A DNA stretch of 64,000 nucleotides from a virus (taxonomy: Duplodnaviria; Caudoviricetes): positions 1 to 64,000 of IMG/VR virus record IMGVR_UViG_3300006149_000006; one strand, given 5' to 3'. A program made the translations under genes and the position numbers. The notes under the pieces are model-generated. The model made no database searches and was not told the origin of the DNA. It saw only the letters and a program-made list of their open reading frames with translations. Positions 916 through 58,075 of this stretch are shown in pieces (position 1 is the first letter of the stretch; every line of letters starts with the position of its first letter).

Positions 916-926
916 GGAGGAGTAAA

Positions 927-1283: not shown

Positions 1284-1284
1284 A

Positions 1285-1725: not shown

Positions 1726-1812
1726 TTGGTTTGTCTCCTAATATATTTATATTAAGTATAGCATATCAGCACGACTAATACAAGTGATTTCATACAAAGA
1801 AAGGATGATTTA

Positions 1813-4800
1813 ATGCAAAATTACCATCGTCATACGTCCTATAGTAATCCATGGGGATTTAAGGATTCTGCTGCTGTAAATGAAGATTACGCTAAACGTG
1901 CGGTTGAATTAGGGCACAAGGTAATATCCAGCGTAGAACATGGTTACCAAGGTTACTATTTTGAAACATTTGAATTAGCAAAACAATATGATTTGAAATT
2001 TATCTTTGGATGCGAAGCATATTGGGTAAAAAATCGACATGAAAAAGATAGAACAAATGCACATATCATTATACTTGCTAAAAACGAAAATGGACGTAGA
2101 GCAATTAATTCTATTCTTTCTACTGCAAATGAAGATGGTTATTACTTCCGCCCTCGTGTTGACATGGAACTGCTACTTAGTCTGCCAGCAAATGATGTAA
2201 TAATTACAACGGCCTGTATTGCATTCTGGCGTTATGAAGACATTGAAGATTTACTTATTCAGTTACATAACTATTTCAAGAACAATCTGTTTCTTGAGAT
2301 TCAATATCACAATACAGAGTCGCAAATTGCTTTGAACAAGCGTATTTTGGAGTTATCTGAAAAAAACGGAATTGAAATGATTGCTGGTATGGATAGTCAT
2401 TACATTTATCCAGAAGAAAAGGTAGAACGTGATTTCATGCTTGCCTCTAACCCTTTACGTAATGAGGAAGAAGAGGGCTGGTATATGGATTATCCAGATG
2501 ATGAAACCACCATGCAACGCTTCTTAATGCAGGACATATTTACTAAAGAGCAGATTCAAAAGGCAATGAATAATACTGATCTGCTACTGGATTTTGATGA
2601 TTACTCTATTTTACCGAATGGTGAGCCTAATCCGATTTTTTCAAAGGATATTAAACTCCCCACCCTATATGATGGTAAGCATGAAATTGATGGTAAGTTA
2701 CTGCCCAAGTTGACACAGGAACAACGTAATAAAGAATACAGTAAATTGATTACACGCCTTTTCAAAGAATATATGAAAGGTGTACCGCCTGAACAATATG
2801 ATGAGTATTTTGAAGGTGTTAAAACAGAAGTTCAGGTTATTAAGGACACAAATATGTCAGATTATTTCCTGATTGACTATTACATGGTCAAACGAGCAAT
2901 CGAAATGGGAGGCGTTTTGACTAACTCTGGTCGTGGTAGTTCTGTAGGATATTTCACCAATACACTTCTTGGATTCTCGAAGGTAGACCGTTTCCAATCT
3001 CCAATCAAACTTTATCCAGAGCGATTTATCAGTAAAAGCCGTATTTTAGAAACGAAATCATTACCGGATATAGACCTAAATTGGGGGACTCCTGATATCG
3101 CAGCGGAAGCACAGAAGCAGATTCTTGGTAAGGATCATGCCTATCCTATGATTGCCTTTGGCACGTGTAAAAAGAAGAGTGCTTTCAAACTTTATTCAAG
3201 AGCGCAAAATATGGATTTTAATCTTGCAAATACGATTTCAACACAAATTGAAAAGTACGATGAAGCTTTAAAATATGCAGATGATGATGAAAAAGATGAA
3301 ATTGACATTTACGATTACGTAGATAAGGAATATCATTCGTATATTGATGCAAGTAAAAAATATCAAGGCATCATTATGGATAAGAAAAAAGCTCCTTGCG
3401 CTTATTTGCTTTATAGTGGAAGCATTCGTGAAGAAATCGGTTTGATTAAATGTAAAAGTGAATCAACCAAAAAAGAATACATAACTGCAGTTATCGATGG
3501 CGCAATTGCAGAAAATTATAAGTTCTTGAAGAATGACATTCTTAAAGTTGATGTTGTTTTACTTGTTGATATGATTTATAAACGTATCGGTATTAAACCC
3601 CATACAGTCAATCAGCTTATAGAGCTGGTTAAGAATGACCAGCTGGTATGGGGTATCTATGCTAATGGTTACACGATAGGCGTAAATCAGGTTGAAAAAG
3701 CATCTACTGCCAGAAAGTCGATGAAATATCGGCCAAAGAATGTATCTGAGCTGTCGGCTTTTATTGCAGCTATTCGCCCGGCGTTCAAGTCAATGTATTC
3801 TAAACTTGAAAATCGTGAGGACTTCTCATACGATATTCCTGCTTTTGATAAGATTCTTCAGACAGAAGAACTTCCTCAAAGTTTCATTCTGTATCAAGAG
3901 CAGACAATGAACACTTTGAACTATGCAGGATTTCCAATTGATGAGTGTTATGGAATTATTAAGGCTATTGCTAAAAAGCATCCAGAAAAGGTTCGTCCTT
4001 TGAAGGAACGATTCGTCAATGGGTTTCGTGATCGGATTATGGAGGAAGGGACTCCAAAGGAAAAGGCAGAAGAAGATGCTGCACGAGTATGGCAGATTAT
4101 CTCTGACTCTTGTGACTATGGATTTAATTCAGCCCATGCCTACTGTATGGCGCTGGACAGTCTTTATAACGCATATTTGAAAGCACATTATCCTTATGAA
4201 TTCTATGAGGTTTTGCTTCAAACTTATTCTGACAAGGGTAAAAAAGATAAGGTTGCAGAACTCAAGAAGGAAATGAGTCATGCATTCGGTATCATAGAGG
4301 GTGAGTATAAATTTGGCTTGGACAATAGAAAGTTCGTTGCTGATCCAGAGCATCATACAATTTATCCCTCGTTGCTGTCAATTAAAGGGCTTAGTCAGGG
4401 ATGTGCCAATGACTTATATACGCTTGGCAAAAAGCACTATGATTCATTCTATGAGTTATGGAAAGACCTGAAGAAGAAAAAGAATCTGAATAGTGGCAAG
4501 ATCAATACACTGATTGAGATTGGCTATTTTGATGATTTCGCTTCTATTGGCAAGATTAAGAAGTTTATTGAAATTCTTGATAGGCTTTTCAGTCGATCAC
4601 AGTTTAGCAAGTCTGATCCTCCTGTTGAATTTATTAAATATATTAAAAAGTATTCGGTGGAGACAGAGAAACAGTATCGTAAATTCGACTATGATTCTGC
4701 GCTGCATGAAATCTGGAATGATTTAGATGATATTGATATTTCTCTTAGTGAACGGCTGAAATATGAACTTGATAATATTGGCTATGTAAAGACTTGTATG

Positions 4801-5106
4801 CCTGATATGTCGCCTGATTATTCTTTTGTTCAGGAATATGAATGTAAATATAAAAATCCTAAGTTGACATTGTATCGGTTGTGTGATGGCAGCACTGAAA
4901 TTGTTAAGGTGCGGCGTAAAAAATACGATGAATCACCTATCAACGTGGGCGATATTATTAAGACTATGGAATGTTCGGAGGAAGGTCGTTGGTCAAAAAA
5001 TTCTGAAGGTGAATGGCAACAAAGTTCATCTGACAAAGAACGGATTTTAAAAAAGTGGTCATTTATCAGAGAAAATAAAACAATAGATGAAGGAGAGATG
5101 GATTAA
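1813..5106 (+). CDS. dnaE: DNA polymerase III alpha subunit (PHP + Pol domains)
   Basis: HRHT.YS PHP start, GRGSS, PERF, PDID, K.D.L and YGFN.AHA motifs. Confidence 0.95.
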   Translation: MQNYHRHTSYSNPWGFKDSAAVNEDYAKRAVELGHKVISSVEHGYQGYYFETFELAKQYDLKFIFGCEAYWVKNRHEKDRTNAHIIILAKNENGRRAINSILSTANEDGYYFRPRVDMELLLSLPANDVIITTACIAFWRYEDIEDLLIQLHNYFKNNLFLEIQYHNTESQIALNKRILELSEKNGIEMIAGMDSHYIYPEEKVERDFMLASNPLRNEEEEGWYMDYPDDETTMQRFLMQDIFTKEQIQKAMNNTDLLLDFDDYSILPNGEPNPIFSKDIKLPTLYDGKHEIDGKLLPKLTQEQRNKEYSKLITRLFKEYMKGVPPEQYDEYFEGVKTEVQVIKDTNMSDYFLIDYYMVKRAIEMGGVLTNSGRGSSVGYFTNTLLGFSKVDRFQSPIKLYPERFISKSRILETKSLPDIDLNWGTPDIAAEAQKQILGKDHAYPMIAFGTCKKKSAFKLYSRAQNMDFNLANTISTQIEKYDEALKYADDDEKDEIDIYDYVDKEYHSYIDASKKYQGIIMDKKKAPCAYLLYSGSIREEIGLIKCKSESTKKEYITAVIDGAIAENYKFLKNDILKVDVVLLVDMIYKRIGIKPHTVNQLIELVKNDQLVWGIYANGYTIGVNQVEKASTARKSMKYRPKNVSELSAFIAAIRPAFKSMYSKLENREDFSYDIPAFDKILQTEELPQSFILYQEQTMNTLNYAGFPIDECYGIIKAIAKKHPEKVRPLKERFVNGFRDRIMEEGTPKEKAEEDAARVWQIISDSCDYGFNSAHAYCMALDSLYNAYLKAHYPYEFYEVLLQTYSDKGKKDKVAELKKEMSHAFGIIEGEYKFGLDNRKFVADPEHHTIYPSLLSIKGLSQGCANDLYTLGKKHYDSFYELWKDLKKKKNLNSGKINTLIEIGYFDDFASIGKIKKFIEILDRLFSRSQFSKSDPPVEFIKYIKKYSVETEKQYRKFDYDSALHEIWNDLDDIDISLSERLKYELDNIGYVKTCMPDMSPDYSFVQEYECKYKNPKLTLYRLCDGSTEIVKVRRKKYDESPINVGDIIKTMECSEEGRWSKNSEGEWQQSSSDKERILKKWSFIRENKTIDEGEMD

Positions 5107-5229
5107 TACGCTCGAATGACTGATAGCACTGAATTCTTGTATAGTATCAATCGAGGTTTATATCCAAAGTTTTATACATTTTCAGCATTAAAAGCCAGTT
5201 AAAAATACAAATCGTAAAAGGGGGTTATA

Positions 5230-5499
5230 ATGAATCTAAGCAGATATGAGCAGGAGACTATCTTCAATTACAATAACGAAGAAAAAAACGCATATATCTT
5301 TACATATGACAAATCGCTTATACGAAAGATCGATAACAAACTGTCTGAGTATCCAGATATCAAAGTCGTTCGAAGAGGAGAATACTGGGCTGAATATAGT
5401 ATGCCTAAGAAATGGATTAAAGTAAGATTTCCCAGAATTTTATCTGATGAGCAAAAGTCAGAAATCTCAAATCGAATGAAAGCAGCGAGAAAAAAATAG
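5230..5499 (+). CDS. Conserved hypothetical protein
   Basis: LSRYEQETI.NYN pattern typical of clostridial mobile elements; RBS present. Confidence 0.65.
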   Translation: MNLSRYEQETIFNYNNEEKNAYIFTYDKSLIRKIDNKLSEYPDIKVVRRGEYWAEYSMPKKWIKVRFPRILSDEQKSEISNRMKAARKK

Positions 5500-5513
5500 T
5501 AATAACAAGTGAG

Positions 5514-6059
5514 GTGATATTTATTTTAGAATTGTACAAGTATACAGACAAAGAAATCGAACAATTAGTAAAATCTATTGTAGTTCTTACTGATACCCGT
5601 GAAAAATGCAACTCTCATATTCTTGATTGGTTCGACAAAAATAAAATGCCCCATAAGACAAAGGCGTTATCAAATGGAGATTATAGTTTTTATGTGCCAG
5701 CAAATCCCGAACTGAATATTGAACGTGATCTATACTTTGACAAAGAGATTATGGTAGAGCGAAAAGGTTCTCTGGAGGAATTAAGCGGCAACTTCTCTCA
5801 GCATCGTGCAAGATTTGAAGAAGAAATGGCTACATATCCCGGCGTAAAATATCTGCTGGTAGAGAATGCAAACTATCAAGATATTATTACAGGTAAGTAT
5901 AATACTAAGTTTTCAACTAAAGCCTATCTTGCCAGTCTACATACATTTAATCATCGGTATGGCCTCCAGATGATGTTTATGCCTGATCCCAAATACTCTG
6001 GATATTATTTATATGGTGTGTTTATATATTTTCTTAAAAGTATTCTCAGACGAAGTTGA
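5514..6059 (+). CDS. ERCC4-domain nuclease
   Basis: DTRE, L..GDY and VERKGSLEEL motifs. Confidence 0.88.
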   Translation: MIFILELYKYTDKEIEQLVKSIVVLTDTREKCNSHILDWFDKNKMPHKTKALSNGDYSFYVPANPELNIERDLYFDKEIMVERKGSLEELSGNFSQHRARFEEEMATYPGVKYLLVENANYQDIITGKYNTKFSTKAYLASLHTFNHRYGLQMMFMPDPKYSGYYLYGVFIYFLKSILRRS

Positions 6060-6113
6060 TGTATAGTAAATATTTCTTGCTATGAAAATACAGATAAAAA
6101 GAAAGGTGAAAGT

Positions 6114-8114
6114 ATGAATCAAAACATAAAATCTCTTGTAGCAGAACTGAATGAATATCGCGATGCTTACTATAACCGGTCAGATCCTCTTGTTACAGAT
6201 GCAGAATATGATGCATTATTTAATAAATTGAAACAGCTAGAGCATGAAAGTGGGATTGTTCTTAGCAATTCTCCAACACAGACTGTTGGGTACGAAGTAA
6301 AAAGTAAACTGAATAAGGTCAAACACGATATTCCCTTGTTATCACTCGATAAGACAAAAGATATTAATACAATTCTTGATTTTTCTAAAGCAAATCCTTG
6401 CCTTTTAATGTTGAAACTCGATGGATTGACTGTTGAACTTCTGTACAAGGATGGATTATTGATTCAGGCATCTACTCGTGGCGATGGACATATCGGTGAA
6501 GATATTACACATAATGCTAAGGTGTTTAATAATATTCCGCTCACAATACCGTATAAAGGATTATTACGCGTAACCGGTGAAGCTATCATTCATAAACAAG
6601 ATTTTAACACTATCAATGATAATCTATCTACAGATGAAAAAGCATATGCCAATGCTCGTAATCTTGTATCCGGATCAGTCCGGCAACTTGATAGTAAGAT
6701 ATGTGCAAATCGTAATGTATGCTTCATCTTATGGGATGTATTAGAGGGGTTAGATGAAGAATGTGATAATGCCCGGTCTGATAAAATTGCTCATTGTGTT
6801 CGTATGGGATTTGAGAGTTCTATAACCAAATATTTTGTCTATGAATGGGCGAAGGAATATTTGCCTGAATGGATTGAAGAGATGAAATATGCAGCTGAAA
6901 AAGAAGGAATACCTATTGACGGGCTTGTGATAAAATACGATAGCATTACATATTCGAAACAGTTAGGCGGAACATCTCATCACAACAACGATGGATTAGC
7001 GTTTAAATTTGAAGATGAAGTAGTCGAGAGTAGACTGCAGAATATAGAATGGTCACTTGGGAGAAGTGGTCAGCTTATACCAGTTGCAGTCTTTGACCCA
7101 ATTAAAATCGGCGGAACAATTATATCACGGGCTTCTCTTCATAATGTTACTGTGATGAAGAATTTACTCGGTGATTTCCCACACAATTCTCAAAAAATAT
7201 TTGTTATGAAAGCAAATCAGATTATACCTCAAATTGTGACTGCCGAAAAGCGGCTCCCTTCTGATTCAGAAATGATTCCTGAACATTCTGATTGTTTCAA
7301 AATTCCTGATTGTTGTCCAGTATGTGGATTTCCTACAATCCTTGAGAAATCAAACAATACAGAAATCGTATCATGCGTGAATCCTCATTGCACAGGAAAA
7401 AGACTCAGCCGATTTGAACATTTCGTCAGCAAGCAAGCGATGAACATTGAAGGGATATCTACATCTACGCTTGAACATTTTATTGAAAAGAATTGGTTGA
7501 AAGAATTTGTTGATATTTATAAACTGGATCAACACAGAAACGAAATTATTAGAATGAACGGTTTTGGTGAACGAGCCTACGATAAATTATGGGACGCAAT
7601 TCAAACATCGCGAACTGTTAGTCTCGATAAATTTCTTGTTTCGCTGGGCATTCCAACAATAGGTACAACCGCAGCAAAATCAATCTCCAATTATTGTCAC
7701 GGGGATATTTCAGAATTCGAATACTTAATCAATCAGGACTTTGATTGGAGTATATTAGATGATTTTGGCCAGACTACTTCTGACAATATTAAAAATTGGT
7801 TCAATGATCCATTTAATGCAACAAACTATGTTGATTTGCTAAATTTCATTCAAATTCAAAAGCCGGAGGTAAAAGAAATTAAGAGTTCTGCATTCGTTAA
7901 TAAAACAGTTGTTGTTACTGGCACGCTTAAGCATTTCACGCGCGATAGTATTACTGATAAGTTAGAAGAACTTGGCGCGAATGTTTCTGGTTCTGTTTCT
8001 AAAAAGACTAATTACCTTATCGCTGGCGAAAAGGCGGGATCTAAGCTTTCAAAAGCCCGACAGTTCGGGGTAAATATTCTAACTGAAAATCAATTTTTGG
8101 AGATGATATCATGA
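6114..8114 (+). CDS. ligA: NAD-dependent DNA ligase
   Basis: KLDG, TRGDG, DGLVIK, Cys4 zinc finger and C-terminal BRCT (GSVSKKT...GEKAGSKL). Confidence 0.96.
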   Translation: MNQNIKSLVAELNEYRDAYYNRSDPLVTDAEYDALFNKLKQLEHESGIVLSNSPTQTVGYEVKSKLNKVKHDIPLLSLDKTKDINTILDFSKANPCLLMLKLDGLTVELLYKDGLLIQASTRGDGHIGEDITHNAKVFNNIPLTIPYKGLLRVTGEAIIHKQDFNTINDNLSTDEKAYANARNLVSGSVRQLDSKICANRNVCFILWDVLEGLDEECDNARSDKIAHCVRMGFESSITKYFVYEWAKEYLPEWIEEMKYAAEKEGIPIDGLVIKYDSITYSKQLGGTSHHNNDGLAFKFEDEVVESRLQNIEWSLGRSGQLIPVAVFDPIKIGGTIISRASLHNVTVMKNLLGDFPHNSQKIFVMKANQIIPQIVTAEKRLPSDSEMIPEHSDCFKIPDCCPVCGFPTILEKSNNTEIVSCVNPHCTGKRLSRFEHFVSKQAMNIEGISTSTLEHFIEKNWLKEFVDIYKLDQHRNEIIRMNGFGERAYDKLWDAIQTSRTVSLDKFLVSLGIPTIGTTAAKSISNYCHGDISEFEYLINQDFDWSILDDFGQTTSDNIKNWFNDPFNATNYVDLLNFIQIQKPEVKEIKSSAFVNKTVVVTGTLKHFTRDSITDKLEELGANVSGSVSKKTNYLIAGEKAGSKLSKARQFGVNILTENQFLEMIS

Positions 8115-10272: not shown

Positions 10273-13200
10273 GCGTGATGGTAGAGAGGTCGAGTTTGAT
10301 AAAAGAAAAATCAGCAATGCAATTTTGAAAGCAATTACTGAAGTTGACGGTAAAAGCACAGCTGATACCGATAGAATTGCATATGATATTGCTGATCAGA
10401 TTGAGGAAACTAACAAAGACACTACCTTGACCGTAGAGCAGATTCAGGATATGGTTGAATTCCAGCTTATGCTTAGTTATCGAAAGGATATCGCAAAGGC
10501 ATATATCCTGTACCGTAACGAACGAACTAAAATCAGAGATAGAAATAGTAATCTCATTCAGAAAGTAATATTACGCGCAAATTCTTCTGTCGATATTCGA
10601 TCCAATGCAAATGTCGATGAAATGTCATTTTCAGGAAGAGAAAAGGAAGCGTCTTCTGAAATTGGTAAATCAATCGCTTTGGATTTTGGTGGATTATCTC
10701 ATGACGTTGCCAATGCGCATAAACAAATGTTGGTATATCAACATGATCTCGAAAAGGCAATCTACGGTATTCATAACTGTCTTAATTTGAATTTTCAGGA
10801 GATTTTTAATTATGGATTTCGTACAAGAAATGGCGACGTAAGGCCTCCAACAAGTTTTAGTACAGCTTGCCAACTCGTTGCAGTAGCTTTCCAGTGTCAG
10901 AGTCAAGTTCAGTTTGGGGGTGTGGGCAGTATTCATCTTGACTTTGATCTTGCACCATTCGTAAAAAAGAGTTTCTATAAGCATTTTATGGATGGTATAA
11001 AATATTTGACCGATCTTGAGGTTGATGGAATTTCAAGCGATACATCTATTGATGCAGAAATTTATAAAACATTTCCGCAAGTATATCAATATGCGATAGA
11101 TATGATGGAGCGTGAGGGCAAGCAAGCAGCACAGGGACTCTATCATAATTTGAACACACTTGAATCAAGACAAGGTTCGCAGGTTCCTTTCACCAGTATT
11201 AACCTCGGACGCGATACTAGTACAGAAGGTAGACTTGTAACAAAGTGGATTATGGAGGCCAGCATTGATGGTATTGGACAACATCACCTTACAAGCATTT
11301 TCCCCATTAGTATTTTTCAGTACAAGGAGGGTATCAATGCGAGCGCTGGCGATCCCAATTACGACATGAAACAGCTCGCTCTTGAATCTATGAGCAAGCG
11401 CATTTATCCAAACTGGTGTAACTGCGGTTGGTCGCAGGCGCATGAAGATGAAAATGATCCCGATACATATTTTGCTACGATGGGTAAGTGTAATATGCAG
11501 CTCATCTAAAACCTTTTGAACCTCGCCAGAGGGTGTGGGAATAATCCTGCTAACGGATAGGACTTTAAACAGAAAGTTGAGTCCGTGCTAAGTAATCAAG
11601 AATAGTAATAACATAACAAGGAGGTGATATTGTGTTTATTTATAAAATAACAAATAAATCAGATGGCAAAATCTATATAGATAATAGCATACACAAATGA
11701 ATGTTATGGTGATTATCTAAAAGAAAGGCATAAAAGTGGGACTACTATTCAAGTAATTGATAAAACTACGTGTAATATGCGGATTTTTGATTCTATAAGA
11801 CTTGCTGCAAGAGAATTAGAAATTTCAAGAAGCAATATAATGGCACAAATACGAAAAGGAAAGACGCAATTCAATTTAAACAACTATGAGTTCACTATTC
11901 TTGATTAAAAGTGTATCGACTATCCCTGATGAATGTATGGGAGTAGGGCTGGAGATTGGTACCAGCGATGTTATAGGAAACGAAGCATCTGTAAACCGAA
12001 GCGGAAGGCTATCGAAAGATAGAAGATATAGTCAGTTCCATTGGTGACAATGGATTAGAATGTGCAGAACTTTAATTGGATATGACCGCCATGGTCTTGG
12101 ATATATCCGACAAGGAAGAGGTAATAATGTGCCGAATACAATTATCCTTCCAAAACTTGGTATTGAGTTTGGTATCTGTCTAGGTATGCGTGACAAGCCT
12201 GATCTGGATGGATTCTGGAAAGCTTTCGAAGAAACTTTGCAGTTGACTGAACGTGGACTTTTGGAACGATTTGAAATCATGGTACGGCAATCTCCTAAAT
12301 CAGCACCATTTATGTACCAGAATAATACGATTCAAGATGGAAGAAATTGCGAAAAGGACGTGTTTAACGCGTTGAAACATAACACACTGGCGATTGGCTA
12401 TCTTGGTGTCGCTGAAATGTGCCAAGCACTTTTCGGCAGGAATCATATTCGTGATTCGGATGTTCATGCTTTTGCTCTGTCTGTTGTTAAACGAATTAAT
12501 GAATTCGCTGCTGAAGCATCTGAGCGTAACAATCTGAATTTTTCGTGCTATGCAACCCCTGAAACAAAGATGTTCTGTGGGGGCTTCTACAGTAATGTGG
12601 AATGAAAAAATGGCTTAACGTATTTATTACGGTGTACGACTTACGATTAGGATTTGCAGGAAATGGCAAATAGAAGTCGTGCTAACAGGGAAAGCAGAAA
12701 TGTAATCCTGTGCTAAATTACAATTATAATCTATTCACTGATATTTATTATTATTTGAAAGAAGGTGAAATATGGGAACAAGATTTTTACCAGATACAGC
12801 CGCTCCAATTAAAGATGCTCCTGAACACTGGATAGATATAGATGGTTCTGTATATGCTATCGAACATAGGAATAATCATCCTCATATCTTATACAAAAAA
12901 GCACTTGATGAGGTTTATGGATATAAATACTGCTCTATTGATTATATTCTTAATGGTAAAAAGGTTAGGAAAAGAAAAAGAGTCCATAGGCTAGTCGCGG
13001 AAGCATTTATTCCAAACCCAGAAAACAAACCTGTTGTATGTCATAGAAATAATATAAAATCCGACAATCGAAAAGAGAACTTGTATTGGGGAACTGTTTC
13101 CGAAAATACACAACAAGCATTTGATGATTTGCTTATTGTAAATGCAAAAGGAAAAGATGGTTCTCAAAGCATTTCTGTAAAAATGTATGACACAAATACA

Positions 13201-27758: not shown

Positions 27759-29174
27759 TTAACTATACACCAGACATATTGTCCCATTATTAAGTGAGCT
27801 AGGCGCACTTGTCCTCATTGCTATCCCTCGATAAAGCGTAGATGTATAACTTGTATTGGTCATACTTGTTTGCCCTGTGCCTCCATTAGAAACCGAAAGT
27901 GTCCCTGTGACACCCGGTGTTATGCTTGCTGTACCATCAAAACTAGAAGATGATGTACTTCCAAGATTTGTACGAATTGTTCTTGCAGTTGTAAGTTTCG
28001 CGGCTGAGTCAACTCTATCAGCTCTTGCTACACGAATAGGGGCAATATATGTTGTCTGTTCTTTTGTAATACGGCCCTTAGAATCAACTGTAACATTCGC
28101 AATAGGAATCCCCGGATAAAAACCATACGTTGAATTTGTGATTGTAAAGTATGATTCCACATTATTCTCATAAATAACAGTTGATGGATCTGCTGTTCCT
28201 GTCCCATACTTTACCTCGCTAATCTCTGCCCTATCCGTCCCATTATTGACACTATTATCCTTCCGGTATGTAAATACAATAGACTGATTGGCCGAAAGTG
28301 CAACCGTCAGCTGGCCGCTTTGCTCTACTGCGCCACCGGTATTTGCCAACACAGTCGATCCAGCTGCTACAATATTAAGATAATCATATGACACATTTTC
28401 AGATGATACTTTCCATTTGAATGACAATTTACACGCCTGTTTTGCAGTCCATGTAGATATTGCTGATGTGCCATGCAATCCAACATTATTACTGACCCAT
28501 ACGGTACCATTATTGTTGCGAACTAATTCTATCGCTCCATATTCACCAGACACAACACCAGTATTGGCAAGCGTAGTAGGGATGCTTACACTCGAAGCGC
28601 CGTTAAATGATACGCTACCTGTCGCATCTCCACTCAAGGAGATGTTTCTTGATGTCGCAAGTTTAGCTGCTGATACCGCTTGCCCAGTTGTATTTCCAGT
28701 CCCGCCATTTGTTATTCCTAATGTGCCTGTAACACCGGGCGTAATGTTTGCACTTCCATCAAAACTTGCTGTAGATGTACTTGCGAGATTAGTTCTAATA
28801 GTACGGGCTGTTACAAGTTTTACTGCCGATGTCGCTGAACCACCGGCAGTGCTTGAACCTGCATAACTGTGCGTGTGAGATGTGCTTGATTTACTGGCAA
28901 GTTTCTCATCCATTTCCTGTTCTGTATAGTATCTTTCATCATGAATGTGGCCTGTCGGAGAAGCGCCCACTTGGGCAGCAGTATAATCACCGGCTTGCGG
29001 AACAACTGCTCCTGTCCTCCCTTTGAAAGATGTCACACCTGTATCTGGCGCAGCCTGTGCAACTGCATTTCCATTTTCATCAAATCCAACTACTTGTCCA
29101 ACAGCGCCAATAAGCTTATCTTGTTTTCTTGCAAGTTCAGGCTTATCATTCATAGGAAATCCTGAAACAATCAT
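27759..29174 (-). CDS. Tail fibre protein (cassette 4)
   Basis: MIVSGFP-KQDKL-GQVVGFD head, HxH motifs and duplicated ARTIRTNL..FDG...GGTG repeats. Confidence 0.85.
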   Translation of the reverse strand: MIVSGFPMNDKPELARKQDKLIGAVGQVVGFDENGNAVAQAAPDTGVTSFKGRTGAVVPQAGDYTAAQVGASPTGHIHDERYYTEQEMDEKLASKSSTSHTHSYAGSSTAGGSATSAVKLVTARTIRTNLASTSTASFDGSANITPGVTGTLGITNGGTGNTTGQAVSAAKLATSRNISLSGDATGSVSFNGASSVSIPTTLANTGVVSGEYGAIELVRNNNGTVWVSNNVGLHGTSAISTWTAKQACKLSFKWKVSSENVSYDYLNIVAAGSTVLANTGGAVEQSGQLTVALSANQSIVFTYRKDNSVNNGTDRAEISEVKYGTGTADPSTVIYENNVESYFTITNSTYGFYPGIPIANVTVDSKGRITKEQTTYIAPIRVARADRVDSAAKLTTARTIRTNLGSTSSSSFDGTASITPGVTGTLSVSNGGTGQTSMTNTSYTSTLYRGIAMRTSAPSSLNNGTICLVYS

Positions 29175-29353
29175 TCTGACATCATCCCTCCTTTTAAATA
29201 ATCAATGCTTTGATATTCGTTGAGTATAATAAATACGCAACATCTTATCCTTTCAACGCTCAAAACGACAATATGCTCTTTTCCAGCCACACATCATTCC
29301 ATTCACCCCCTCGCATGTTCCATCATTGTCCACTGCTATTTGTCATGAGCATC

Positions 29354-29446
29354 AAAAGCAAACGTTTTGCCTCACCCTCTGTTGCCTACGATAAAATTGA
29401 ACAGGCAGTTGTATGAGAGGGTTTTGTAAATGTTGTAGTAAATCAT
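29354..29446 (-). pseudogene. N-terminal relic of a phi29 gp16-type DNA encapsidation ATPase
   Basis: MIYYNIYKTLSYNCLFNFIVGNRG*GKTFAF; ATG overlaps the upstream stop (ATGA); stop falls inside Walker A. Confidence 0.7.
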
Positions 29447-30642
29447 ATTCGAGTGAGAGGTTGGGTTGATATACCTGAAACCTGCGCGTCCCCATACGCG
29501 TAGCAGTTGTATATTGTCGGCGAATTTGCAAATTTAATGCTATTCTTGAATATGCAGTTTAAAAATAATGAACCGCTTGCATTTACTTCTGTTGTGACGC
29601 CATTGAAAATACAATCATAGAAACGGTCTAACCTTAACTGTGCATTTCCAGTTAGTGTTATTTCGCAACCAACAAAAACAGAATTATCTATTCTGCCGGC
29701 ATATTCAACAACGCCGCCAACTGCTCTTATCCGTTCGCCCGTGATTGTTAATGACGTTTTAGGGTAGGTTCCGCTAAGATGATTACCCGTTAGAACAAAA
29801 ATCTTATTTGCAGCGTCATTATTAAATATGGGGGTCGCTACCCCCGCAATACGTGTGGTCGCTATTTCTACATTCTGGTATTCATCTGTCGCCGCGATCT
29901 CTATTAAACCGGCTGATTGATATAACTTTAAAGCCTGTATATTATTAGGATGATTGAAGCTTAAGGCCGACACATTAGCGATATAATGATAATCCATATT
30001 TATATTGCCATTCATCTTCCCACCCGTGAGCGGCAGCGCCGCATTCGCTTTGGTCAGCGCGGCAGATGCGTTAGACGATGCTGTAGAAATATTGCTGTTT
30101 TGTGTGGTCTGCTCTGTTTTGATTTTCGCCACATCACCCTGAAGCGCCGAGATGTCTGCCATATTGTCATTTACATCTTTTACCAGTCCATCAGATGTGC
30201 TGCCGACTGTAGTTTCCAGTGCAGAGATGCGATTTGTAACGCTCTCCGGAACGGAACCGGACGACTGTTTCAGTTTATTTATCTCCGCTGTATTGGAAGC
30301 GATATTCGAGGCATTGTCAGCCGATTTTTTGACGAGGCCTGACGTGCTGTTACCGACCGTGGTCTGGAGCGTCTCCAGCTCTCCGTCTATCGCGGTGATG
30401 TTATTTTCATTTGCAGTCACACGAGCTGTCAGGGCAGTAATATTCGAGGTATTGGTTTCCGTTTTAGCAACTGCGTTTTGGATAGCGGTTGTATTGCCGG
30501 AAATAGCCGTATCCTGAGCCGTCTGCTGTAATTCAATTTCTGCAACATCATCTTGAATTGCCGAAACATTTGTTGTATTTGTCTGAACTTGATTAACAAG
30601 TTCTTCTGGTATTTCCTTTTTAGGTAAAGTAGAAAAAATCAT
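29443..30642 (-). CDS. Coiled-coil tail fibre/spike (cassette 3)
   Basis: MIFSTLP head, heptad stalk, LPLTGG.M.G.I.M and beta-helix-like C-terminus (FxxCxF). Confidence 0.75.
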   Translation of the reverse strand: MIFSTLPKKEIPEELVNQVQTNTTNVSAIQDDVAEIELQQTAQDTAISGNTTAIQNAVAKTETNTSNITALTARVTANENNITAIDGELETLQTTVGNSTSGLVKKSADNASNIASNTAEINKLKQSSGSVPESVTNRISALETTVGSTSDGLVKDVNDNMADISALQGDVAKIKTEQTTQNSNISTASSNASAALTKANAALPLTGGKMNGNINMDYHYIANVSALSFNHPNNIQALKLYQSAGLIEIAATDEYQNVEIATTRIAGVATPIFNNDAANKIFVLTGNHLSGTYPKTSLTITGERIRAVGGVVEYAGRIDNSVFVGCEITLTGNAQLRLDRFYDCIFNGVTTEVNASGSLFLNCIFKNSIKFANSPTIYNCYAYGDAQVSGISTQPLTRI

Positions 30643-30700
30643 ATTTATCTCCTTTCACTCTTTAATTAATCTATTATGGGCTTTCTGATTGAAAACAAAG

Positions 30701-30745
30701 AAAAACACACGCGCGTGCTATTGAATAACACGTGCGTGCGTTTTT
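30701..30745 (-). terminator. Hairpin terminator after TAC operon 2
   Basis: aaaaacacacgcgcgtg / cacgtgcgtgcgttttt. Confidence 0.7.
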
Positions 30746-30915
30746 CATGCATTGCTTTCTTATGATCTTCGTCAGTATCATAAGAAAAAGCCAGGAAACA
30801 TAAGTCTTTGTTATGTTCTTTCGTTATAAATAAAAATAACGAAAAATGTCCCTCTAAAACGGAACGGAAACTTAGTCCATCCATAAACACTTTTCAAGCA
30901 AAAGAAAGCTTTTAG

Positions 30916-31326
30916 CTACGGTTTTCCAGCTTTATCGTCTTCCATAAAATTCATAAACGGTATGTGAACCGGCTGGAAAGGGCCAGCCATTGTAATCTGC
31001 GCGATATAAGGGCGCAAATACCCCAGCAATAACGCAGGCGCGTTGTTCTTCAATAGCGCCTCTACTATCTGGCTGTCAGTCTCTTGATCCCACCGGAAGT
31101 GAGCACCGATGACGGCAGAAAGACAAAAGGGGTACTTCTGTGATTCTTCAGCAACGTCTGCTTGTAAGGAAACATAAGCCATGCAAGAATCCACCCGCTG
31201 AACAGAGAACTTGGTTTCAAAAGGTAGCTGTGTATCCTTATTTTCTTCGGGACTAAAGCCTTCATTAACTAAAAAAGCCATTTTCGTTAAAACAGGATTC
31301 GTAAATTGAAATTTGCTTGGCACCAT
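30916..31326 (-). CDS. SecB-like chaperone
   Basis: NAPALLLGYLRPYIAQIT...P..IPFMNF motif. Confidence 0.88.
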   Translation of the reverse strand: MVPSKFQFTNPVLTKMAFLVNEGFSPEENKDTQLPFETKFSVQRVDSCMAYVSLQADVAEESQKYPFCLSAVIGAHFRWDQETDSQIVEALLKNNAPALLLGYLRPYIAQITMAGPFQPVHIPFMNFMEDDKAGKP

Positions 31327-34677: not shown

Positions 34678-35745
34678 CTAAATATTGGAATCTAAAATAA
34701 TTTTCGCAGTACTATCTCTCGTTGATATACTCAGTACCGGATAAACGGTATCGGTTGGTGTTGCATCCAATGCAAGCCGCACAGACATAGGTGTATCCAA
34801 TATCGCCCAGACACAAGATTTAATAAGCACACTTTCTATTTTTCCGGATTTCAGGAAGTTTGCATAGATTTCTCCTTCGAAAGATACTGTTGGATTTTTT
34901 TGCATAGTAGCTGGAATCGTAAAAGCGACACGAAGGCCGTTTTGCGTTGTTCCTGTTGCTCCGGATGCCGGGGAATTAGACCATGTAGGCAACCTGATGA
35001 CAACCTGATACCGCTGGCACTTTGTCAGCTCCGTTGCATAATTCGGGACTTCGTTGAGCACCCAAACACCGTTTTCTTTGTGTGCAAGTGTTTGACGATG
35101 GCCAAGTTCAAGTTTCATTGCGGCAACATCTACAATACCTTTATTTCCTGGTGTAATGGAAACATTAAAATGATCTTGCATTCCATTCGGAATAGCGAAT
35201 GTAAACGATACTACCTCGTATTCTGTATTTTTATAATACCCTGCTTGTTCAGTAATGTTACTATCGTAAGTCGTTCCATACGAAAGAGTAAAATAAGAAC
35301 CACTAACAAGTTTTGCAAGTGCAGAAAGCGTTACGGTTTTGCCCTCCAATTCTTTGAAATGCCCAATCCTCTGCGAGAATATTGATCGGTAGTCGTTCGC
35401 GCTCGCATCAACACGAATACCATCAGGAAAAAGAGTTGTAATAACAGATGTATACGTGCGCCATCTATCAATCGTATAATTAACATTAGTGTACTCCGTC
35501 TGTCCCCTCTGATTCACCGGATTCGCAAAATACCAATTATCCAGCAGATTCTGATTACTGAAAGAACGGTAATACTCTGCAATCGAGGTCACCCCATCCG
35601 GCATCAAGAACTTATCAGCTGTAAAGTTTTTTGCAAACTGTGAAGCAGGAAGCTGGGCAACGCCCCCCTCTCTATTAACTATAAAAGAGTCTGTCAACTC
35701 GTTCAAAAATTCAATTTTTTGAAGTTTTTCAGGCTTCTGTGCCAT
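34678..35745 (-). CDS. Tail fibre/receptor-binding protein (cassette 2)
   Basis: NLLDN..F..PVNQRG...Y..DRW, KLE.G and EL.KCQRY motifs. Confidence 0.75.
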   Translation of the reverse strand: MAQKPEKLQKIEFLNELTDSFIVNREGGVAQLPASQFAKNFTADKFLMPDGVTSIAEYYRSFSNQNLLDNWYFANPVNQRGQTEYTNVNYTIDRWRTYTSVITTLFPDGIRVDASANDYRSIFSQRIGHFKELEGKTVTLSALAKLVSGSYFTLSYGTTYDSNITEQAGYYKNTEYEVVSFTFAIPNGMQDHFNVSITPGNKGIVDVAAMKLELGHRQTLAHKENGVWVLNEVPNYATELTKCQRYQVVIRLPTWSNSPASGATGTTQNGLRVAFTIPATMQKNPTVSFEGEIYANFLKSGKIESVLIKSCVWAILDTPMSVRLALDATPTDTVYPVLSISTRDSTAKIILDSNI

Positions 35746-36019
35746 TATTTTGCTCCATTTCTCCCACCGAAAGGAACGTCGGGTGCGATTCCTCTAATCG
35801 ATTGTGGGCTGCAATTTTTTCGTCAATCATAGCCGCAACCTCTTCTACGGTAGGACATTTGCTGAGGGCAGCTTGTAATTCAGCAACATCATTTGAGGCG
35901 ACCGCATTACCACTTTCATCAAATCCAACTACCTGTCCAACAGTGCCAACAAGCTTATCTTGTTTCTTGTCTAAATTATCACCTTCGCTCGCCGGAAAAG
36001 TAGAAAAAATCACGGTCAT
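35729..36019 (-). CDS. Stand-alone fibre head/adaptor (cassette 2)
   Basis: VIFSTFP-KQDKL-GQVVGFD-GNAVA followed by I.AHN....HP. Confidence 0.7.
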   Translation of the reverse strand: MTVIFSTFPASEGDNLDKKQDKLVGTVGQVVGFDESGNAVASNDVAELQAALSKCPTVEEVAAMIDEKIAAHNRLEESHPTFLSVGEMEQNNGTEA

Positions 36020-38443: not shown

Positions 38444-38848
38444 TTATCCAATGAGAATTAGCGTTACAGGAATATCGCATGATGGAATCTGTCCAGCAAC
38501 AGAAATAGTTAATCGTCCATTCTCTTGGCCGCTTACATATAGTTTTGCGGCACAAGCTTCTTCAAACTGTTCTCTTGAAATATTCTGAGATATATTGATA
38601 ATCCCATTTTGCAAATCTGTCAATGCATCAATCGTAAGCGTTTGTGTCACTAGACTATCCGAGCCAATCCATGCGGATGCTTTCAATACAGTATCAATAT
38701 ATCTGCTGTTCTCGGCTTTTTGTGCAAGAATATTATCAATCTTTGTCATGTTAGAGTTAGTTTCGCCAAATACTTTTTTGCGCACATCTATAACCATTTC
38801 GCTGCTGTCATCTGTAACGTATAGTCCATAATTTGCGGTTTCACTCAT
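38444..38848 (-). CDS. Tail adaptor-like protein (one L.ASAW...CDIPV domain)
   Basis: Domain is repeated in the upstream gene. Confidence 0.65.
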   Translation of the reverse strand: MSETANYGLYVTDDSSEMVIDVRKKVFGETNSNMTKIDNILAQKAENSRYIDTVLKASAWIGSDSLVTQTLTIDALTDLQNGIINISQNISREQFEEACAAKLYVSGQENGRLTISVAGQIPSCDIPVTLILIG

Positions 38849-38864
38849 AATTAGCCTCCTTTAA

Positions 38865-39620
38865 TTAGGGAATCAGCATAATCGTTACAGGAATATTACA
38901 TGCCGGTAAATTCCCACTCGCCGAAATAGTGATACTTCCATCTGACTGATCGGCTACACGAAGATTCGCCTCCTTCGCCGCCTTTATTTGTTCGTCCGTA
39001 GCATCTCTTGCAATGCTAATTACGCCGTTTTGCTTCTCATATAACCCATCCACTCTGACTGTCTGTTGATTATTACTCCATGCCGATGCTTCCAACGTAA
39101 TATATACCATATGACTTGAATTGTCAGTTGGAAGAAGAACAATAGACACTGGAATATCACAATCTGGAATTTGGCCATCCGCATGAACTATGAGCGAATT
39201 TTTATCTTGGTTCGATATTACCAAATTGGCATTAGCTGCTGCTGTCATCTGTTCGTCTGTCGCAGCATCCGAAATTCCAATAATACCATTTCGTTCAGAT
39301 CCAAACCTATGATCTGTAATTGTTTGTTCATTATCACTCCATGCATTTTGCAGAAGTACAGCTTCAACAAGAATACTGGATGAAGAACCATTAAAATTAT
39401 CAAACGGAAGCTCATTATACCGTTTTCCTCCGTATCCTGTTTTATGTCGAATCACACCATCGCTACAAACCACAGTAACCATCTCTCCATCTAAAAGAAC
39501 TGGATTTTTGCTTTCCCAACTCTCTACAGTGTCCCTGCGCTGCTGAAATGTTCCAGTAACTTTTCGTTCATTCATTTTCATATCACGCTCATTTCTTTCA
39601 AAATTTTTGCTATAAAACAC
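38865..39620 (-). CDS. Mtd_N/hyaluronidase-N-like tail protein with two adaptor domains
   Basis: RRDT...W...NPVL.DGE...K.G.G...NELP plus two AW...QQT...P.C.IPV domains. Confidence 0.7.
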   Translation of the reverse strand: MFYSKNFERNERDMKMNERKVTGTFQQRRDTVESWESKNPVLLDGEMVTVVCSDGVIRHKTGYGGKRYNELPFDNFNGSSSSILVEAVLLQNAWSDNEQTITDHRFGSERNGIIGISDAATDEQMTAAANANLVISNQDKNSLIVHADGQIPDCDIPVSIVLLPTDNSSHMVYITLEASAWSNNQQTVRVDGLYEKQNGVISIARDATDEQIKAAKEANLRVADQSDGSITISASGNLPACNIPVTIMLIP

Positions 39621-44981: not shown

Positions 44982-47900
44982 TTATTGCTTTACTTCTTTT
45001 ATTTCCGCTTTCAATTCGTCAATTTGATTCATTAGTTTCTGAATCATTGCTGTATTAAGTGATATTAACTCGCAATACCGAATTGAATATATTCCGTCAC
45101 CGCCATTTTCAGCGCTAGAATCATAATTCTGCTGTACTAAGGCAGCAAAATCTTGTTGCGTAAGATTACTTTCGTTCAGAGCGTCACGCATTTGCTGTGC
45201 TATAAATCCTGTATGGAATCTTCCGCTCATACCATCATTTCGATGATATCTTGCTGGTTTCAATTTACGATAAAATTCACTATAATGTTCTGCAACGTCA
45301 TATCTAATTGTATTTTTAATTCTTTCGTCAGATCCTTCATCAATGGCAACATCGGAATGTGTTCTGTTAGGCGCAACATAAAAGTTATTGTCATCTGCTG
45401 TCATACGACATGCACTGCTCGTCGCTGTCACATAAATTTCTTCAAACGGCCCATTCATTCTAATACCATAAGTTCTGCCAGAACCAGTCGAACCAGAATA
45501 AGTCGAAATGGAGCCAAATCCTTCAGTATCTTCCAATGTGACCAGACTAAGGTCTATAGTGCCAGTCGTGATATTATCACCATTAATTTCTGTTTTGCCA
45601 CTTCTCTCAAGATCACGAAAAGTGACAAATCCGTCAAAATCAAATCCGTCTACTGTTTGCTCCAATGAGGAGACCTTTCCATCAAGGCCCTTAATTTCTG
45701 TCCTAATACTTTTTGCAGTCTGTGTAATGCTAGAGGATAACCCACTTTCCACATCGTCAACACGAGAATTAATAGTACTTGCAGTTTGCGTTATTTGTGA
45801 GGAAAGATTGGCATTCAAGTTTGTAACTCTTGTGTTAATACTTTCAGCTGTTTGTGATATTTCAGATCGTAATCCACGTTCCTTGTCTTCAACAATGCTG
45901 GTAATGCCTTCAAGGTGTAAAAATTCCTCCTTAATTTTATTCCCTGAAAGCGCATCTTTCCCATCAATTAAAAATTTTTTTGCATTGATAGTGCCATTAA
46001 CATCAGCATTTTTCATACTCACATCACCATTCTTTTTTACCCAGAATGGTGCACTTGCAGGATTTTGCGCCCCCGCCCAAATCGCATACTCTGAATAAAC
46101 ACTATTCCCTCCATTTAGGGCTACATAATTATTTCCACTACCTGCATGAAGATAAGAAGATTCTATTGTAAACCCGCCGATTTGGCCAGAGGTTGCTATG
46201 AGTTTTCCTTTAAAATAAGCATTGCCTTTCATATCAAGCCAGAAATTTGCAACTGGCGTATCTCCTGCTGCCAAATTATTCAGAGATGTAATACTTCTAT
46301 TTCCAGTTGTGCGAACTCCTGTCGGCTGACCCTTTGAATTGTAGTAAAACAGAGTATTCTTATCAGCGCCACCAACAATACCAAAAACCGCACCCATATC
46401 GATCCGTCCGCCTGTGTTGCCATATAAATTAAACGATGCATTATGCAAAGATGCGCCCTCAGCATCAACTTTAAATACAGATATGCCGCCATCTTGTTTT
46501 GCACTTTCAATCACAAGATTTTCACCAGCCAAAATGGTTCCGACAATAGCTGGTGCAACAATACCATATATTGTCCCCAAGTTTTTATCAACAAATTCCC
46601 CAATTCCAATAACCCCTGTAACCCAGTTATCATTTGTGAACATCATTGCATTGTGCTGCAACCAAATCTGTTTAGAACTATATGTTCCCGTTGATGAATC
46701 AAATTTCCGACAACGCAATCCAGCCTGATCAATAGTGATTTCATTATCTGTGCCAGCAAGAATCATATTCTTCATAGCATCAATGGCAGATTCCATAAAT
46801 TCTTTAATACTAGTTTTTGCACCACTGTTTACAAAGTTACTATAGTTAAACTGGTTAAAATCTAACGTTTTGCTTGCCGAATTTGACTGGTCTAAATTGT
46901 CAAGTAAACTGAACTTTCCGTTCTTGATCTGAAAATCACTTGCAAATTCCAACTTAAAAGACGATAAGTCGTCAAACTCTATTGACACACCCGTTACCAA
47001 AGGTTCAAGTACACCCATGGTTAGATGAAGATAAATTCGTTTTCCTAACTCAAACTCTCTTGCAAACATAAGAAAATCATCAAATACTAGGAAATTTGAA
47101 CTATCAACTGTAAAATGATATACTGGCGAGGCCTTTTTATTAAGAACCTCTCTTCCATATTCATACAATTCCCATGCAATAGACATCCTTTGGTATTCAC
47201 TGACTTCATAAGTCATGTAGGCTGTTGTGGTTGATGTTTTAAACTGTAAAGATGTATCTGTAAAAGTCGCACCAGTAGATAATGTCCCCGTCAACGAAAG
47301 TGTACCGCTGGGAAACGTGTCTCCATTGACAGATCCTTCACTTAAATATAGTGACATTACAAATGTTTTGTCATTATTAACTTGTAAGGTTCCACTAACC
47401 ACATCTGCTTTCAATTTTAACGCAGAGCTATTTTCCTCAATTATACCGCCACGAACAGTATAAAATGTAATATCCCCGGCATAGGTCGTTTTCGTTACAG
47501 TATTACATCTTGTTAAATTAAAAATGGAAGAAAATTTACGCACTATTTTTGCATCGGTTGAATAACTGCCGGTACTATTTGCAACAAATGAGCTATCAGT
47601 TAAAGAACCACATTTAAAGTAGCGGTCTAAAAGAAGCAATTCGCTGTCAGAGAAAAATGATGAAAATGCTGTCGTATTATTGATTTGTTTCAGCTGATTT
47701 TTATAAGCATCAATTTCTGTTTTGATCTGTTTAAGTAAGTTTTTTTGTGCTTCAATCTCATTATTCTTTTCCTGGATTTGTGAATTTGTTGTATTTAACT
47801 GTGACTGCATCGTTTTGTCAATAGCCACTGCTTGAAGCAATGTTCCCTTCTTTGTCTCCAATCCGCTAAGTTCACCCTGTAAATCTCGCAATACAGCACT

Positions 47901-56988: not shown

Positions 56989-57456
56989 TTACTCTTCCCA
57001 ATAATATAAATCCGGTCTTTTTACATTTTTTATTTTTACTGGCAGTTTTGATTTGCTTTTAAAATTCCTAATTCCTTCCTCAACAAAATGTTCTGCTTTA
57101 CGATAGACCCATCGTTCCTTATGGTAAAAACCGTCAAAGTACCAATCCTTCTTTACAGTAAAGCCGTCATTTATTAGCCAAAAAACATTTGCATATTTTT
57201 GATTGTGCTCATTGAAAATAGACGGCCTCTTCGAATTTTGAATTTTCAAGACAACAGACAAGGAATTACCTGTTACATCAATATCGGCAATATCAGCAAC
57301 AGAAATGCAATTCCCCATCGTTTCTCGGTTAATTCGTTCCTGAATACATTCTCTTAATAGGTTTGCAGCGTTCACTAATTCCTGTGAAAATGTCAGACCT
57401 GATTTTGACTTTATCTTAGTAATATCAATATTTTTAATAACCTGTTGTAATGACAT
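56989..57456 (-). CDS. Tail-region hypothetical protein
   Basis: ORF directly upstream of the tape measure gene. Confidence 0.6.
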   Translation of the reverse strand: MSLQQVIKNIDITKIKSKSGLTFSQELVNAANLLRECIQERINRETMGNCISVADIADIDVTGNSLSVVLKIQNSKRPSIFNEHNQKYANVFWLINDGFTVKKDWYFDGFYHKERWVYRKAEHFVEEGIRNFKSKSKLPVKIKNVKRPDLYYWEE

Positions 57457-57457
57457 T

Positions 57458-58075
57458 TTATTTTGTGACAGGAAATGAAATCACATCTTCATCTATTTTC
57501 GGGATACTATTCTTAAATAGTTCAATCAATTCTGTAAATGAATCAGGATCTTCCTCTATTTCAGATCTAAATTTATCTATGACATTTTTCATTACCGTCA
57601 ATGAATTAGACTTTTTGCGGATACGGACTTCCTTCATATAAGCAAGTTTGTCATTTACCATCTGCTTCAACTCACTAACCAATGTCTGATAATTTACATC
57701 ATTCACATTCTTGACCAGATTAACAGCTTTGCACAGTTCATATGTCTTCTCAATGTCAACAACGTGTTTATTGTCACTGTCATCCACTTTGTTAAGTCCA
57801 CTCTCAAAAACAGGAATATTTGTTGTCATCTGAAGCAATGTAATAATAAACACCGGATCAAGATATTCAGGCATAAAATCACCGTTATCATCAAAGCACG
57901 CATTTACCACACGATTTACGAAAGCTCCTTTTTCCGGAATAGTCAATGCTGTTTTAATCTCAACTTCAATCACTACATTATTATTTGAATCTGTTAATTT
58001 CAAAACAGTATCTCTGTTTTGCAGCTTATAAATATCCATCAATTTGTTAATAGATTTCTTTGTAATTTTAGCCAT
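57458..58075 (-). CDS. Hypothetical protein (possible tail assembly chaperone)
   Basis: RBS aaggag + ATG; position in the operon. Confidence 0.55.
   Translation of the reverse strand: MAKITKKSINKLMDIYKLQNRDTVLKLTDSNNNVVIEVEIKTALTIPEKGAFVNRVVNACFDDNGDFMPEYLDPVFIITLLQMTTNIPVFESGLNKVDDSDNKHVVDIEKTYELCKAVNLVKNVNDVNYQTLVSELKQMVNDKLAYMKEVRIRKKSNSLTVMKNVIDKFRSEIEEDPDSFTELIELFKNSIPKIDEDVISFPVTK

Follow-up and report, generated by a model that had tools for sequence, protein, structure and literature searches.

The stretch at 29354-29446 (minus strand) is a dead 5' fragment of a gp16 gene, and very probably bounds on the 3' side a block of about 1.25 kb (~29354-30606) that came into a temperate siphophage genome from a small phi29-like podovirus. 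The block consists of the podovirus-homologous part of a tail fibre gene and of this gp16 relic. The window analysed here is the first 64 kb of an IMG/VR virus record of 95,583 bp, which is estimated to be 74% complete and thus to represent a genome of about 130 kb. A preliminary description of the locus had proposed that a coiled-coil fibre was taken from a small phi29-like phage together with about 30 codons of its neighbour and then fused to the MIFSTxP tag, and the searches reported below bear out this proposal.

PF05894 groups the ATPases with which phi29-like phages (Salasmaviridae, Guelinviridae, Madridviridae and relatives) encapsidate their DNA. Read on the minus strand from an ATG at 29446-29444, the relic gives MIYYNIYKTLSYNCLFNFIVGNRG*GKTFAFDAHDK*, with the native start codon and the Walker A context (GNRG*GKT) of gp16 kept. 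A likeness to phi29 gp16 had been put forward, and comparison with the gp16 family confirmed it. With X at the internal stop, the 36-residue relic peptide matches PF05894 (Podovirus_Gp16) with 27.5 bits and an E-value of 2.7e-6 (hmmscan), above the curated Pfam cut-off of 25 bits for this family; residues 2-32 align with positions 5-35 of the 331 in the profile, and the peptide otherwise matches SMC_N alone (E = 0.2). Among PHROG families, phrog_2150 ('terminase') matches at 6e-7. A tblastn scan of 50,697 phage records returned 170 matches, and all 30 of those listed correspond to the 5' end of gp16/encapsidation genes in phages of 10-27 kb. The top match is 76% identical over 29 residues (E = 3e-7), and the best ones, at 74-76% identity, come from two human-faecal phages of 16-17 kb and from the Guelinviridae Eggerthella phage LE1-1. 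In a six-frame search of the 95,583-bp record the relic is the sole PF05894 signal, with a score of 23.6 bits when the stop is read through, below the cut-off, and there is no PF05894 signal beyond it in any frame.

The gp16 N-termini closest to the relic are those of podoviruses that also carry relatives of the adjacent fibre, such as L011 (...KTLSYNCLFNFIVGNRGGGKTYGF). The relic shares with them 22-24 of 29 residues and 67-78% of nucleotides, values that lie within the range of the clade itself, whose members are 64-83% identical to each other over the same nucleotides. No indel separates the relic from this clade, and it departs from it at two of the 21 residues that are invariant in six podoviruses, with a stop in place of Gly at codon 25 and Ala in place of Gly at codon 30. 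The stop is an in-frame TGA (29372-29374, minus strand) located inside the Walker A loop; Gly is invariant at this position in the clade and is encoded by GGA in L011, so that one G-to-T change accounts for it. Recoding of TGA was considered and ruled out, as this codon ends 30 of 74 long ORFs, the fibre gene itself among them.

Similarity to gp16 stops exactly after codon 31, in agreement with the end at 29354 that had been marked in advance and with the estimate of about 30 codons. The limits of the relic in tblastx comparisons with podovirus loci are 29354-29452. Codons 32-36 read DAHDK and have no gp16 counterpart (the clade has KQWAI), and a TAG at 29336-29338 (minus strand) closes the frame at codon 37. 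The relic, in which the ASCE ATPase domain (Walker A and B and the catalytic Glu, about residues 1-230) is incomplete and no frame of about 330 amino acids is open, is a fossil of the PF05894 family rather than a member of it. Since only 31 of about 330 residues persist, a TGA interrupts the Walker A loop and the phage has a large terminase of its own to package its DNA, we predict no function for this fragment. Its good preservation suggests either a fairly recent event or a close donor that has not been sampled.

An ATG overlapping the stop codon of the fibre gene had been reported as the start of the gp16-like peptide, and it is present. The fibre ORF ends with ...CGA ATA TGA on the minus strand, and its stop (TGA, 29445-29443) overlaps the gp16 start (ATG, 29446-29444) in an ATGA at 29443-29446. 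The same fibre/gp16 overlap is found in the podovirus contigs L009, L011 and L012 (three of seven contexts). Taken alone, an ATGA overlap could be a chance product in one of three frames.

The fibre gene itself, which we refer to as cassette 3 (29443-30642, minus strand), encodes a chimeric protein of 399 amino acids, P0001, delineated by BLASTP and an AlphaFold model. It comprises a 7-residue tag, a coiled-coil shaft (residues ~13-202), a neck (LPLTGGKMNG...DAANK) and a Cys-rich, beta-rich tip. In the model, residues 13-202 are helical and residues 297-399 are beta-rich (pLDDT ~80), while the intervening part, 203-302, is modelled poorly. A Foldseek comparison of the model with the PDB gave no match at E <= 1e-3. 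The model weakly resembles small quadrilateral beta-helices of the pentapeptide-repeat type.

The podovirus-homologous part of P0001 spans residues 13-399 (29446-30606, minus strand; BLASTP coverage 13-375), and the alignment thus begins after the tag, as had been expected. With P0035, the BLASTP alignment scores 146 bits and pairs residues 13-375 with 386-770, covering a stretch of 14 identical amino acids (GLVKDVNDNMADIS), the neck motif and the Cys-rich tip. P0016 shares 40% of positions with P0001 between residues 82 and 283, and 62% between residues 15 and 59. The last ~25 residues are unaligned with the podovirus C-termini, which are themselves variable among podoviruses. The tblastx fibre match between the record and four podovirus loci covers 29554-30600. 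Overall, the closest sampled podovirus fibres are 30-40% identical to P0001, with local values of 60-70%.

Where are the relatives of this fibre found? The fibre locus had no match in 50,697 phage records (blastn, tblastn), and a pattern scan of IMG/VR with P0001 gave no homologue. Among proteins of 219-699 amino acids we obtained P0001 itself and weak coiled-coil matches only, including P0004 (557 amino acids, on a 33-kb contig), which covers 21% of P0001 and has an uninformative gene context; this length range left out the true relatives, all longer than 700 amino acids. Among longer proteins we found P0016 (E = 1e-33), P0035 (E = 2.5e-32) and nine more, P0042-P0050, all on contigs of 7-19.5 kb. 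When the C-terminal 202 residues of P0001 were compared to 1.84 billion representative sequences with HMMER, P0035 alone covered most of the query (1-168), and the remaining matches mostly involved the widespread neck motif. The only substantial homologues of P0001 are therefore long fibres of small phi29-like podoviruses, which is what a capture from such a phage had led the preliminary description to expect. No full-length tag-bearing homologue, in a siphophage or otherwise, appeared in any collection searched, and public data hold a single allele of the fibre/relic locus.

The genomic context of these relatives is that of phi29-like podoviruses in all seven contigs examined (11-19.5 kb). 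All seven share the gene order lysozyme, Phi29_MCP, gp9 tail knob, connector, a 531-residue protein, a 129-residue protein, fibre and PF05894 gp16. The neighbourhood of fibre and encapsidation gene, another expectation, is seen in every one of them: in five contigs no gene separates the fibre from the gp16 downstream of it, and in the other two an extra gene of 291 amino acids is inserted. On the 14.8-kb contig of P0035 (786 amino acids), for example, the PF05894 gene directly follows the fibre gene with a 4-nt overlap. The podovirus fibres start with an anchor of several hundred residues bearing the PPxP/YIGARYVP motif, unrelated to the start of P0001; this anchor domain (PPxP...YIGARYVP...YEP...Y..SY) is absent from P0001, and its motif is present in an eighth relative, P0003, on a 2.9-kb contig. 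A scan of IMG/VR with the gp16 of L011 yielded 63 loci at 32-54% identity, most of them with gp16 at the contig end, and none of these 63 had a fibre homologue. The clade defined by the podovirus coiled-coil fibres (P0016, P0035, P0042-P0050) is uncultured and has neither a family name nor a Pfam model. We found no near-identical donor fibre in the collections searched and, as the nearest sampled fibres are 30-40% identical to P0001, the actual donor lineage is unsampled.

The phage that received the block has a different character. Its sequence identifies it as an SPbeta-like temperate siphophage, probably of mouse-gut Clostridia, with genes for a DnaE-type polymerase, a NAD-dependent ligase, NrdD and an integrase. 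In keeping with the earlier view that a siphophage has no use for gp16, it possesses its own SPbeta/YonF-type large terminase (69478-71124 of the record), a portal (67922-69460 of the record) and a tape measure of 2687 amino acids, and we found no sheath match in the record. The terminase and portal of this type were missed by Pfam and recognised by PHROGs and tblastn. Among isolates, the large terminase is closest to those of SPbeta-like Bacillus phages (SPbeta, SPR, BUCT082; 125-134 kb), at 41% identity; among bacterial genomes, it is closest (82%) to that of a prophage of Flintibacter muris DSM 110149, which is also syntenic with the window over 38.4-48.8 kb. It is this related prophage that leads us to propose Clostridia as hosts. 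Two independent studies of mouse-gut metagenomes recovered the locus. The record lacks the setting of a phi29-like genome (phi29 MCP, connector, gp9 knob, small size), and tblastx against the four podovirus loci retrieved the fibre, the relic, generic fibre motifs in other cassettes (for example FNGR.GAV...GDYTA) and two isolated matches of ~30 bits in the tail-gene region (46458-46559 and 57392-57472).

The first seven codons of cassette 3 (30622-30642, minus strand) encode the tag MIFSTLP, which is the recipient's own. Related tags start the cassettes at 29174 (MIVSGFP), 36013 (VIFSTFP) and 38397 (MIISAFP), as well as the one distal fibre that the F. muris prophage has (MPIVSIFP), and P0001 matches their consensus M(x)I(I/V/F)S(x)(F/L)P. 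The proposed fusion to a MIFSTxP tag is thus backed by three other cassettes of the same genome and by a prophage fibre. The 16-nt identity between 30626-30641 and 35997-36012, pointed out earlier, is exact and does not extend further. Repeats of 16 nt as such are not rare in 64 kb of sequence; what gives this one meaning is that both copies occupy the same place and frame, codons 1-6 of fibre genes. About ten residues past the tag, the cassettes at 29174, 36019 and 38397 share a segment, KQDKLxGxxGQVVGFDxxGNAV, which is absent from P0001. The KQDKLxG..GQVVGFD segment is also missing in the F. muris fibre, and may for this reason not be essential.

As podovirus homology begins at residue 13-15, the left recombination joint can be placed within codons 8-13, between the tag and about codon 13 (30606). 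From the tblastx limits and the end of homology after codon 31, the right joint lies at 29353/29354. An intrinsic terminator, made of a strong hairpin followed by a U-run (30700-30746, minus strand; MFE -35.6 kcal/mol, z = -7.0), closes the upstream module just before cassette 3. On the other side lies the next fibre cassette, P0002 (27759-29174, minus strand), a protein of 471 amino acids matching phrog_11393 (tail fiber) at 8.8e-27. We detected no terminator separating them, so that the two cassettes may be co-transcribed.

How could such an arrangement arise? According to published work, gp16 is confined to phi29-like phages and has no homologues outside them (PMC11476376, section 2.2.6), which sets the direction of transfer from podovirus to siphophage. 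Two independent markers, fibre and relic, both point by their sequences to one podovirus clade. The donor would have been a small phi29-like podovirus (~17-19.5 kb) in which a long fibre gene lay directly upstream of gp16 with an ATGA overlap. This podovirus and the temperate phage, or its prophage, would have met in one cell, where recombination would have brought over the distal ~385 codons of the fibre gene along with the ATGA junction and the first 31 codons of gp16. On the left, the crossover would have occurred in frame just past the first 7-12 codons of the resident fibre gene, swapping the ~385-residue virion anchor of the donor for the recipient tag MIFSTLP and leaving an intact chimeric fibre of 399 amino acids; the right crossover would have fallen after gp16 codon 31. 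The relic would then be a by-product of fibre transfer. We infer a single transfer event and a host shared by the two phages, and presume that the chimeric fibre is assembled and used.

The same phi29-like origin could also have been indirect or have taken several steps, either through a siphophage or prophage that already bore the scar or through a larger segment (the whole of gp16 or more) that was later trimmed. We consider such a history improbable. It would fit with the 179-nt spacer between the relic and the next cassette (29175-29353, minus strand, its 3' end holding the RBS for the next fibre gene), which has no identifiable origin, since we found no match to it in podovirus loci or elsewhere in the genome, save for a 13-nt match at the RBS. 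The fibre array is also highly mosaic, with relatives of P0002 that have its central domain alone in common and occur without synteny on unrelated contigs, and it is bracketed by a 52-nt repeat (49 of 52 positions identical). However, no other phage or prophage with the fibre or the relic was found in any collection searched, and among 301 genomes of the Flintibacter family PF05894 detects two distant gp16 genes and no similar relic. The relic is moreover barely decayed, with two changes at the 21 clade-invariant residues and no indel.

A functional relic is considerably less probable still. The fragment could act as a translationally coupled leader of 24 codons that influences expression of the next cassette, or as a peptide directed against phi29-like packaging motors, and a temperate phage, as indicated by its integrase, would gain by excluding a competitor. 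Its ATG, its frame and 29 of its 31 codons are intact, and it has a fibre gene on either side, with no terminator detected between the two. However, a 24-residue peptide ending inside the Walker A loop cannot form the ATPase fold, and we found no Shine-Dalgarno sequence ahead of the relic ATG. The relic and spacer together show no unusual RNA fold (z = -0.41), no Rfam family and, in our scans, no consensus promoter or terminator. There is no second lineage in which conservation would be visible, and a recent event explains the preservation of the frame equally well.

A chance match to a generic P-loop motif, or a chimeric assembly of siphophage and podovirus reads, might be suspected from a match of just 31 residues that includes a Walker A motif in metagenomic sequence, but this is the least likely explanation of all: the matches are specific to gp16 and reach 20 residues upstream of the P-loop (KTLSYNCLFNFIVGNRG), the fibre homology leads independently to the same podovirus clade, and a truncated gp16 with a stop codon is not what an assembly chimera would be expected to produce. 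The locus is not a chimera, since independent assemblies bridge its junctions. Its sequence is identical in a MAG contig from NCBI and in a JGI contig; contigs from a second study (2024) span 29153-29587, 29296-29623 and 30514-30700 with zero differences, and a contig assembled from a different sample of the 2018 study spans 30572-30981. In all, runs of two studies and three other assemblies cross the junctions with no difference. Both homologies, the donor-type gene order and the junction positions are observed, as is the presence of the sequence in independent samples.

Direct capture of a fibre from a phi29-like podovirus, with a piece of its neighbour, is thus the reading we retain. Exchange of receptor-binding proteins is usually inferred from protein similarity alone, which leaves direction and breakpoints open. 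The present scar shows that the fibre went from a lytic podovirus into a temperate siphophage, and fixes one crossover to the codon, making this a clean, textbook-style case of fibre transfer. The small part of the resident fibre that was kept, 7-12 residues, is useful information for engineering phage host range in laboratory strains. Through the shared host that we propose, the scar would also link gut podoviruses of ~19 kb, from a clade that is uncultured, with the host range of a Flintibacter-type prophage. A comparison of podovirus-locus DNA with the 301 Flintibacter-family genomes, for host links of the CRISPR type, returned nothing beyond a palindrome of ~60 nt and short matches of the RBS type.

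A broader reading, which we offer as tentative and rather doubtful, is that a tag of about seven residues is enough to plug a podovirus fibre onto SPbeta-like baseplate adaptors, that the array of cassettes is a natural plug-in system for receptor binding, and that the scar assigns a host to the podovirus. Adaptor proteins are encoded at 38444-39620. If this were true, the array would harvest the fibres of lytic phi29-like phages that infect the same lysogen, and the scar would provide the first host assignment, to Flintibacter-type Oscillospiraceae, for this uncultured podovirus clade.

How does this locus compare with known systems? The relic resembles phi29 gp16 and PF05894 in its N-terminal 31 residues, in the LSYN..LFNF..G.RG.GKT context and in its native start position. 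Unlike phi29 gp16, it lacks Walker B, the catalytic Glu, the arginine finger and the C-terminal domain, and is interrupted by a TGA; and unlike phi29-like phages, the phage that carries it has no other phi29-like gene, as judged by tblastx against four podovirus loci. P0001 has the shaft units of podovirus coiled-coil fibres (GLVKDVNDNMxDI..LQ.DVA.I..QQTAQDTAISGNTTAI), their LP.(S/T)GG.M.G ... DAANK.(Y/F)V neck and their Cys-rich, beta-rich C-terminal tip. It differs from these fibres, which are 786-1207 amino acids long, by its 399 amino acids, lacking the anchor and most of the shaft and carrying a siphophage tag instead. The recipient is similar to SPbeta phages in its large terminase (41%), its estimated size of ~130 kb, its DnaE-type polymerase, its integrase and its very long tape measure, whereas its related prophage resides in gut Clostridia (F. 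muris) and not in Bacillus. It has four tag-bearing fibre cassettes, and its F. muris relative one.

Mosaicism of tail fibres is classically known from P2, Mu, lambda and the T-even phages. The p12 protein of phi29 was found to be similar to proteins of Spbetavirus and other groups, a similarity attributed to lateral transfer (PMC11476376, section 2.2.4). As in known transfers of receptor-binding proteins, the distal, receptor-side part has moved here across morphotype and lifestyle while the lineage-specific N-terminal attachment part was kept; unlike in these transfers, P0001 brought along a fragment of a neighbouring essential gene, and the resident part was cut to ~7-12 residues. The scar records the direction in which a fibre passed from one phage type to another, and is a new instance of known mosaicism that calls for no new mechanism. 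Three things are new: a scar of an adjoining essential gene that is exact to the codon and tells which way the fibre moved, the shortness of the resident tag on the chimeric fibre, and the delineation of a gut podovirus clade with long coiled-coil fibres near gp16.

The shaft of P0001, the captured 399-aa chimeric fibre, contains two stretches, residues 15-59 and 152-198 (window 30040-30606), that both align to a single unit, residues 614-658, of P0016, one of the homologous long podovirus fibres. This double alignment indicates either that a shaft unit has been duplicated internally or that the left joint falls inside such a unit.

Is a fibre gene next to gp16, the packaging ATPase gene, a general feature of phi29-like phages? 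In two human-faecal phages of this type (MT835826 and MT835873, 16-17 kb), the ORF upstream of gp16 encodes 501-554 aa and is not a fibre, and no similarity to the window fibre was detectable in it. Judging by these gene orders, having the fibre beside gp16 is a trait of the donor clade and not of phi29-like phages in general. In L011, a donor-type podovirus locus, a palindrome of roughly 60 nt (11078-11143) lies directly 3' of gp16, and it matches, on both strands, sequences in about 40 of 301 Flintibacter-family genomes, with 75-86% identity. The podovirus and these genomes may share a terminator-like or repeat element here, possibly a weak clue to the host.

P0002, the cassette that follows the captured fibre (window 27759-29174), is likewise mosaic. 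Over residues ~85-380, the central domain, it shows 54-57% identity to proteins from unrelated IMG/VR contigs, which have nothing else in common with the window phage. The fibre array also carries a direct repeat of 52 nt whose two copies, at 29075-29126 and 35914-35965, agree at 49 positions; each lies within the docking region of a different fibre gene. Between them are ~6.8 kb with the gp16 relic and the captured fibre, together with small accessory modules and the 355-aa fibre body. In independent runs, contigs that derive from the other copy of the repeat show up as loose ends at 29065 and 29126.

The 355-aa fibre-like ORF (34678-35745, minus strand; phrog_4492) is overlapped at its start by a 96-aa ORF (35729-36019, minus strand) that has the tag plus the KQDKL..GQVVGFD docking segment and ends there. 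The pair may represent one fibre that has been split or truncated, or else a cassette in two parts.

A related prophage is found in Flintibacter muris DSM 110149 (contig C4, L088). Its region 1-7600 includes a 495-aa ORF (2242-3729) whose YMDD-type motif suggests a putative reverse transcriptase, and two adaptor-like genes preceding a single tag-bearing distal fibre of 679 aa (MPIVSIFP...). At the corresponding position, the window phage has four fibre cassettes, whereas the F. muris prophage has one.
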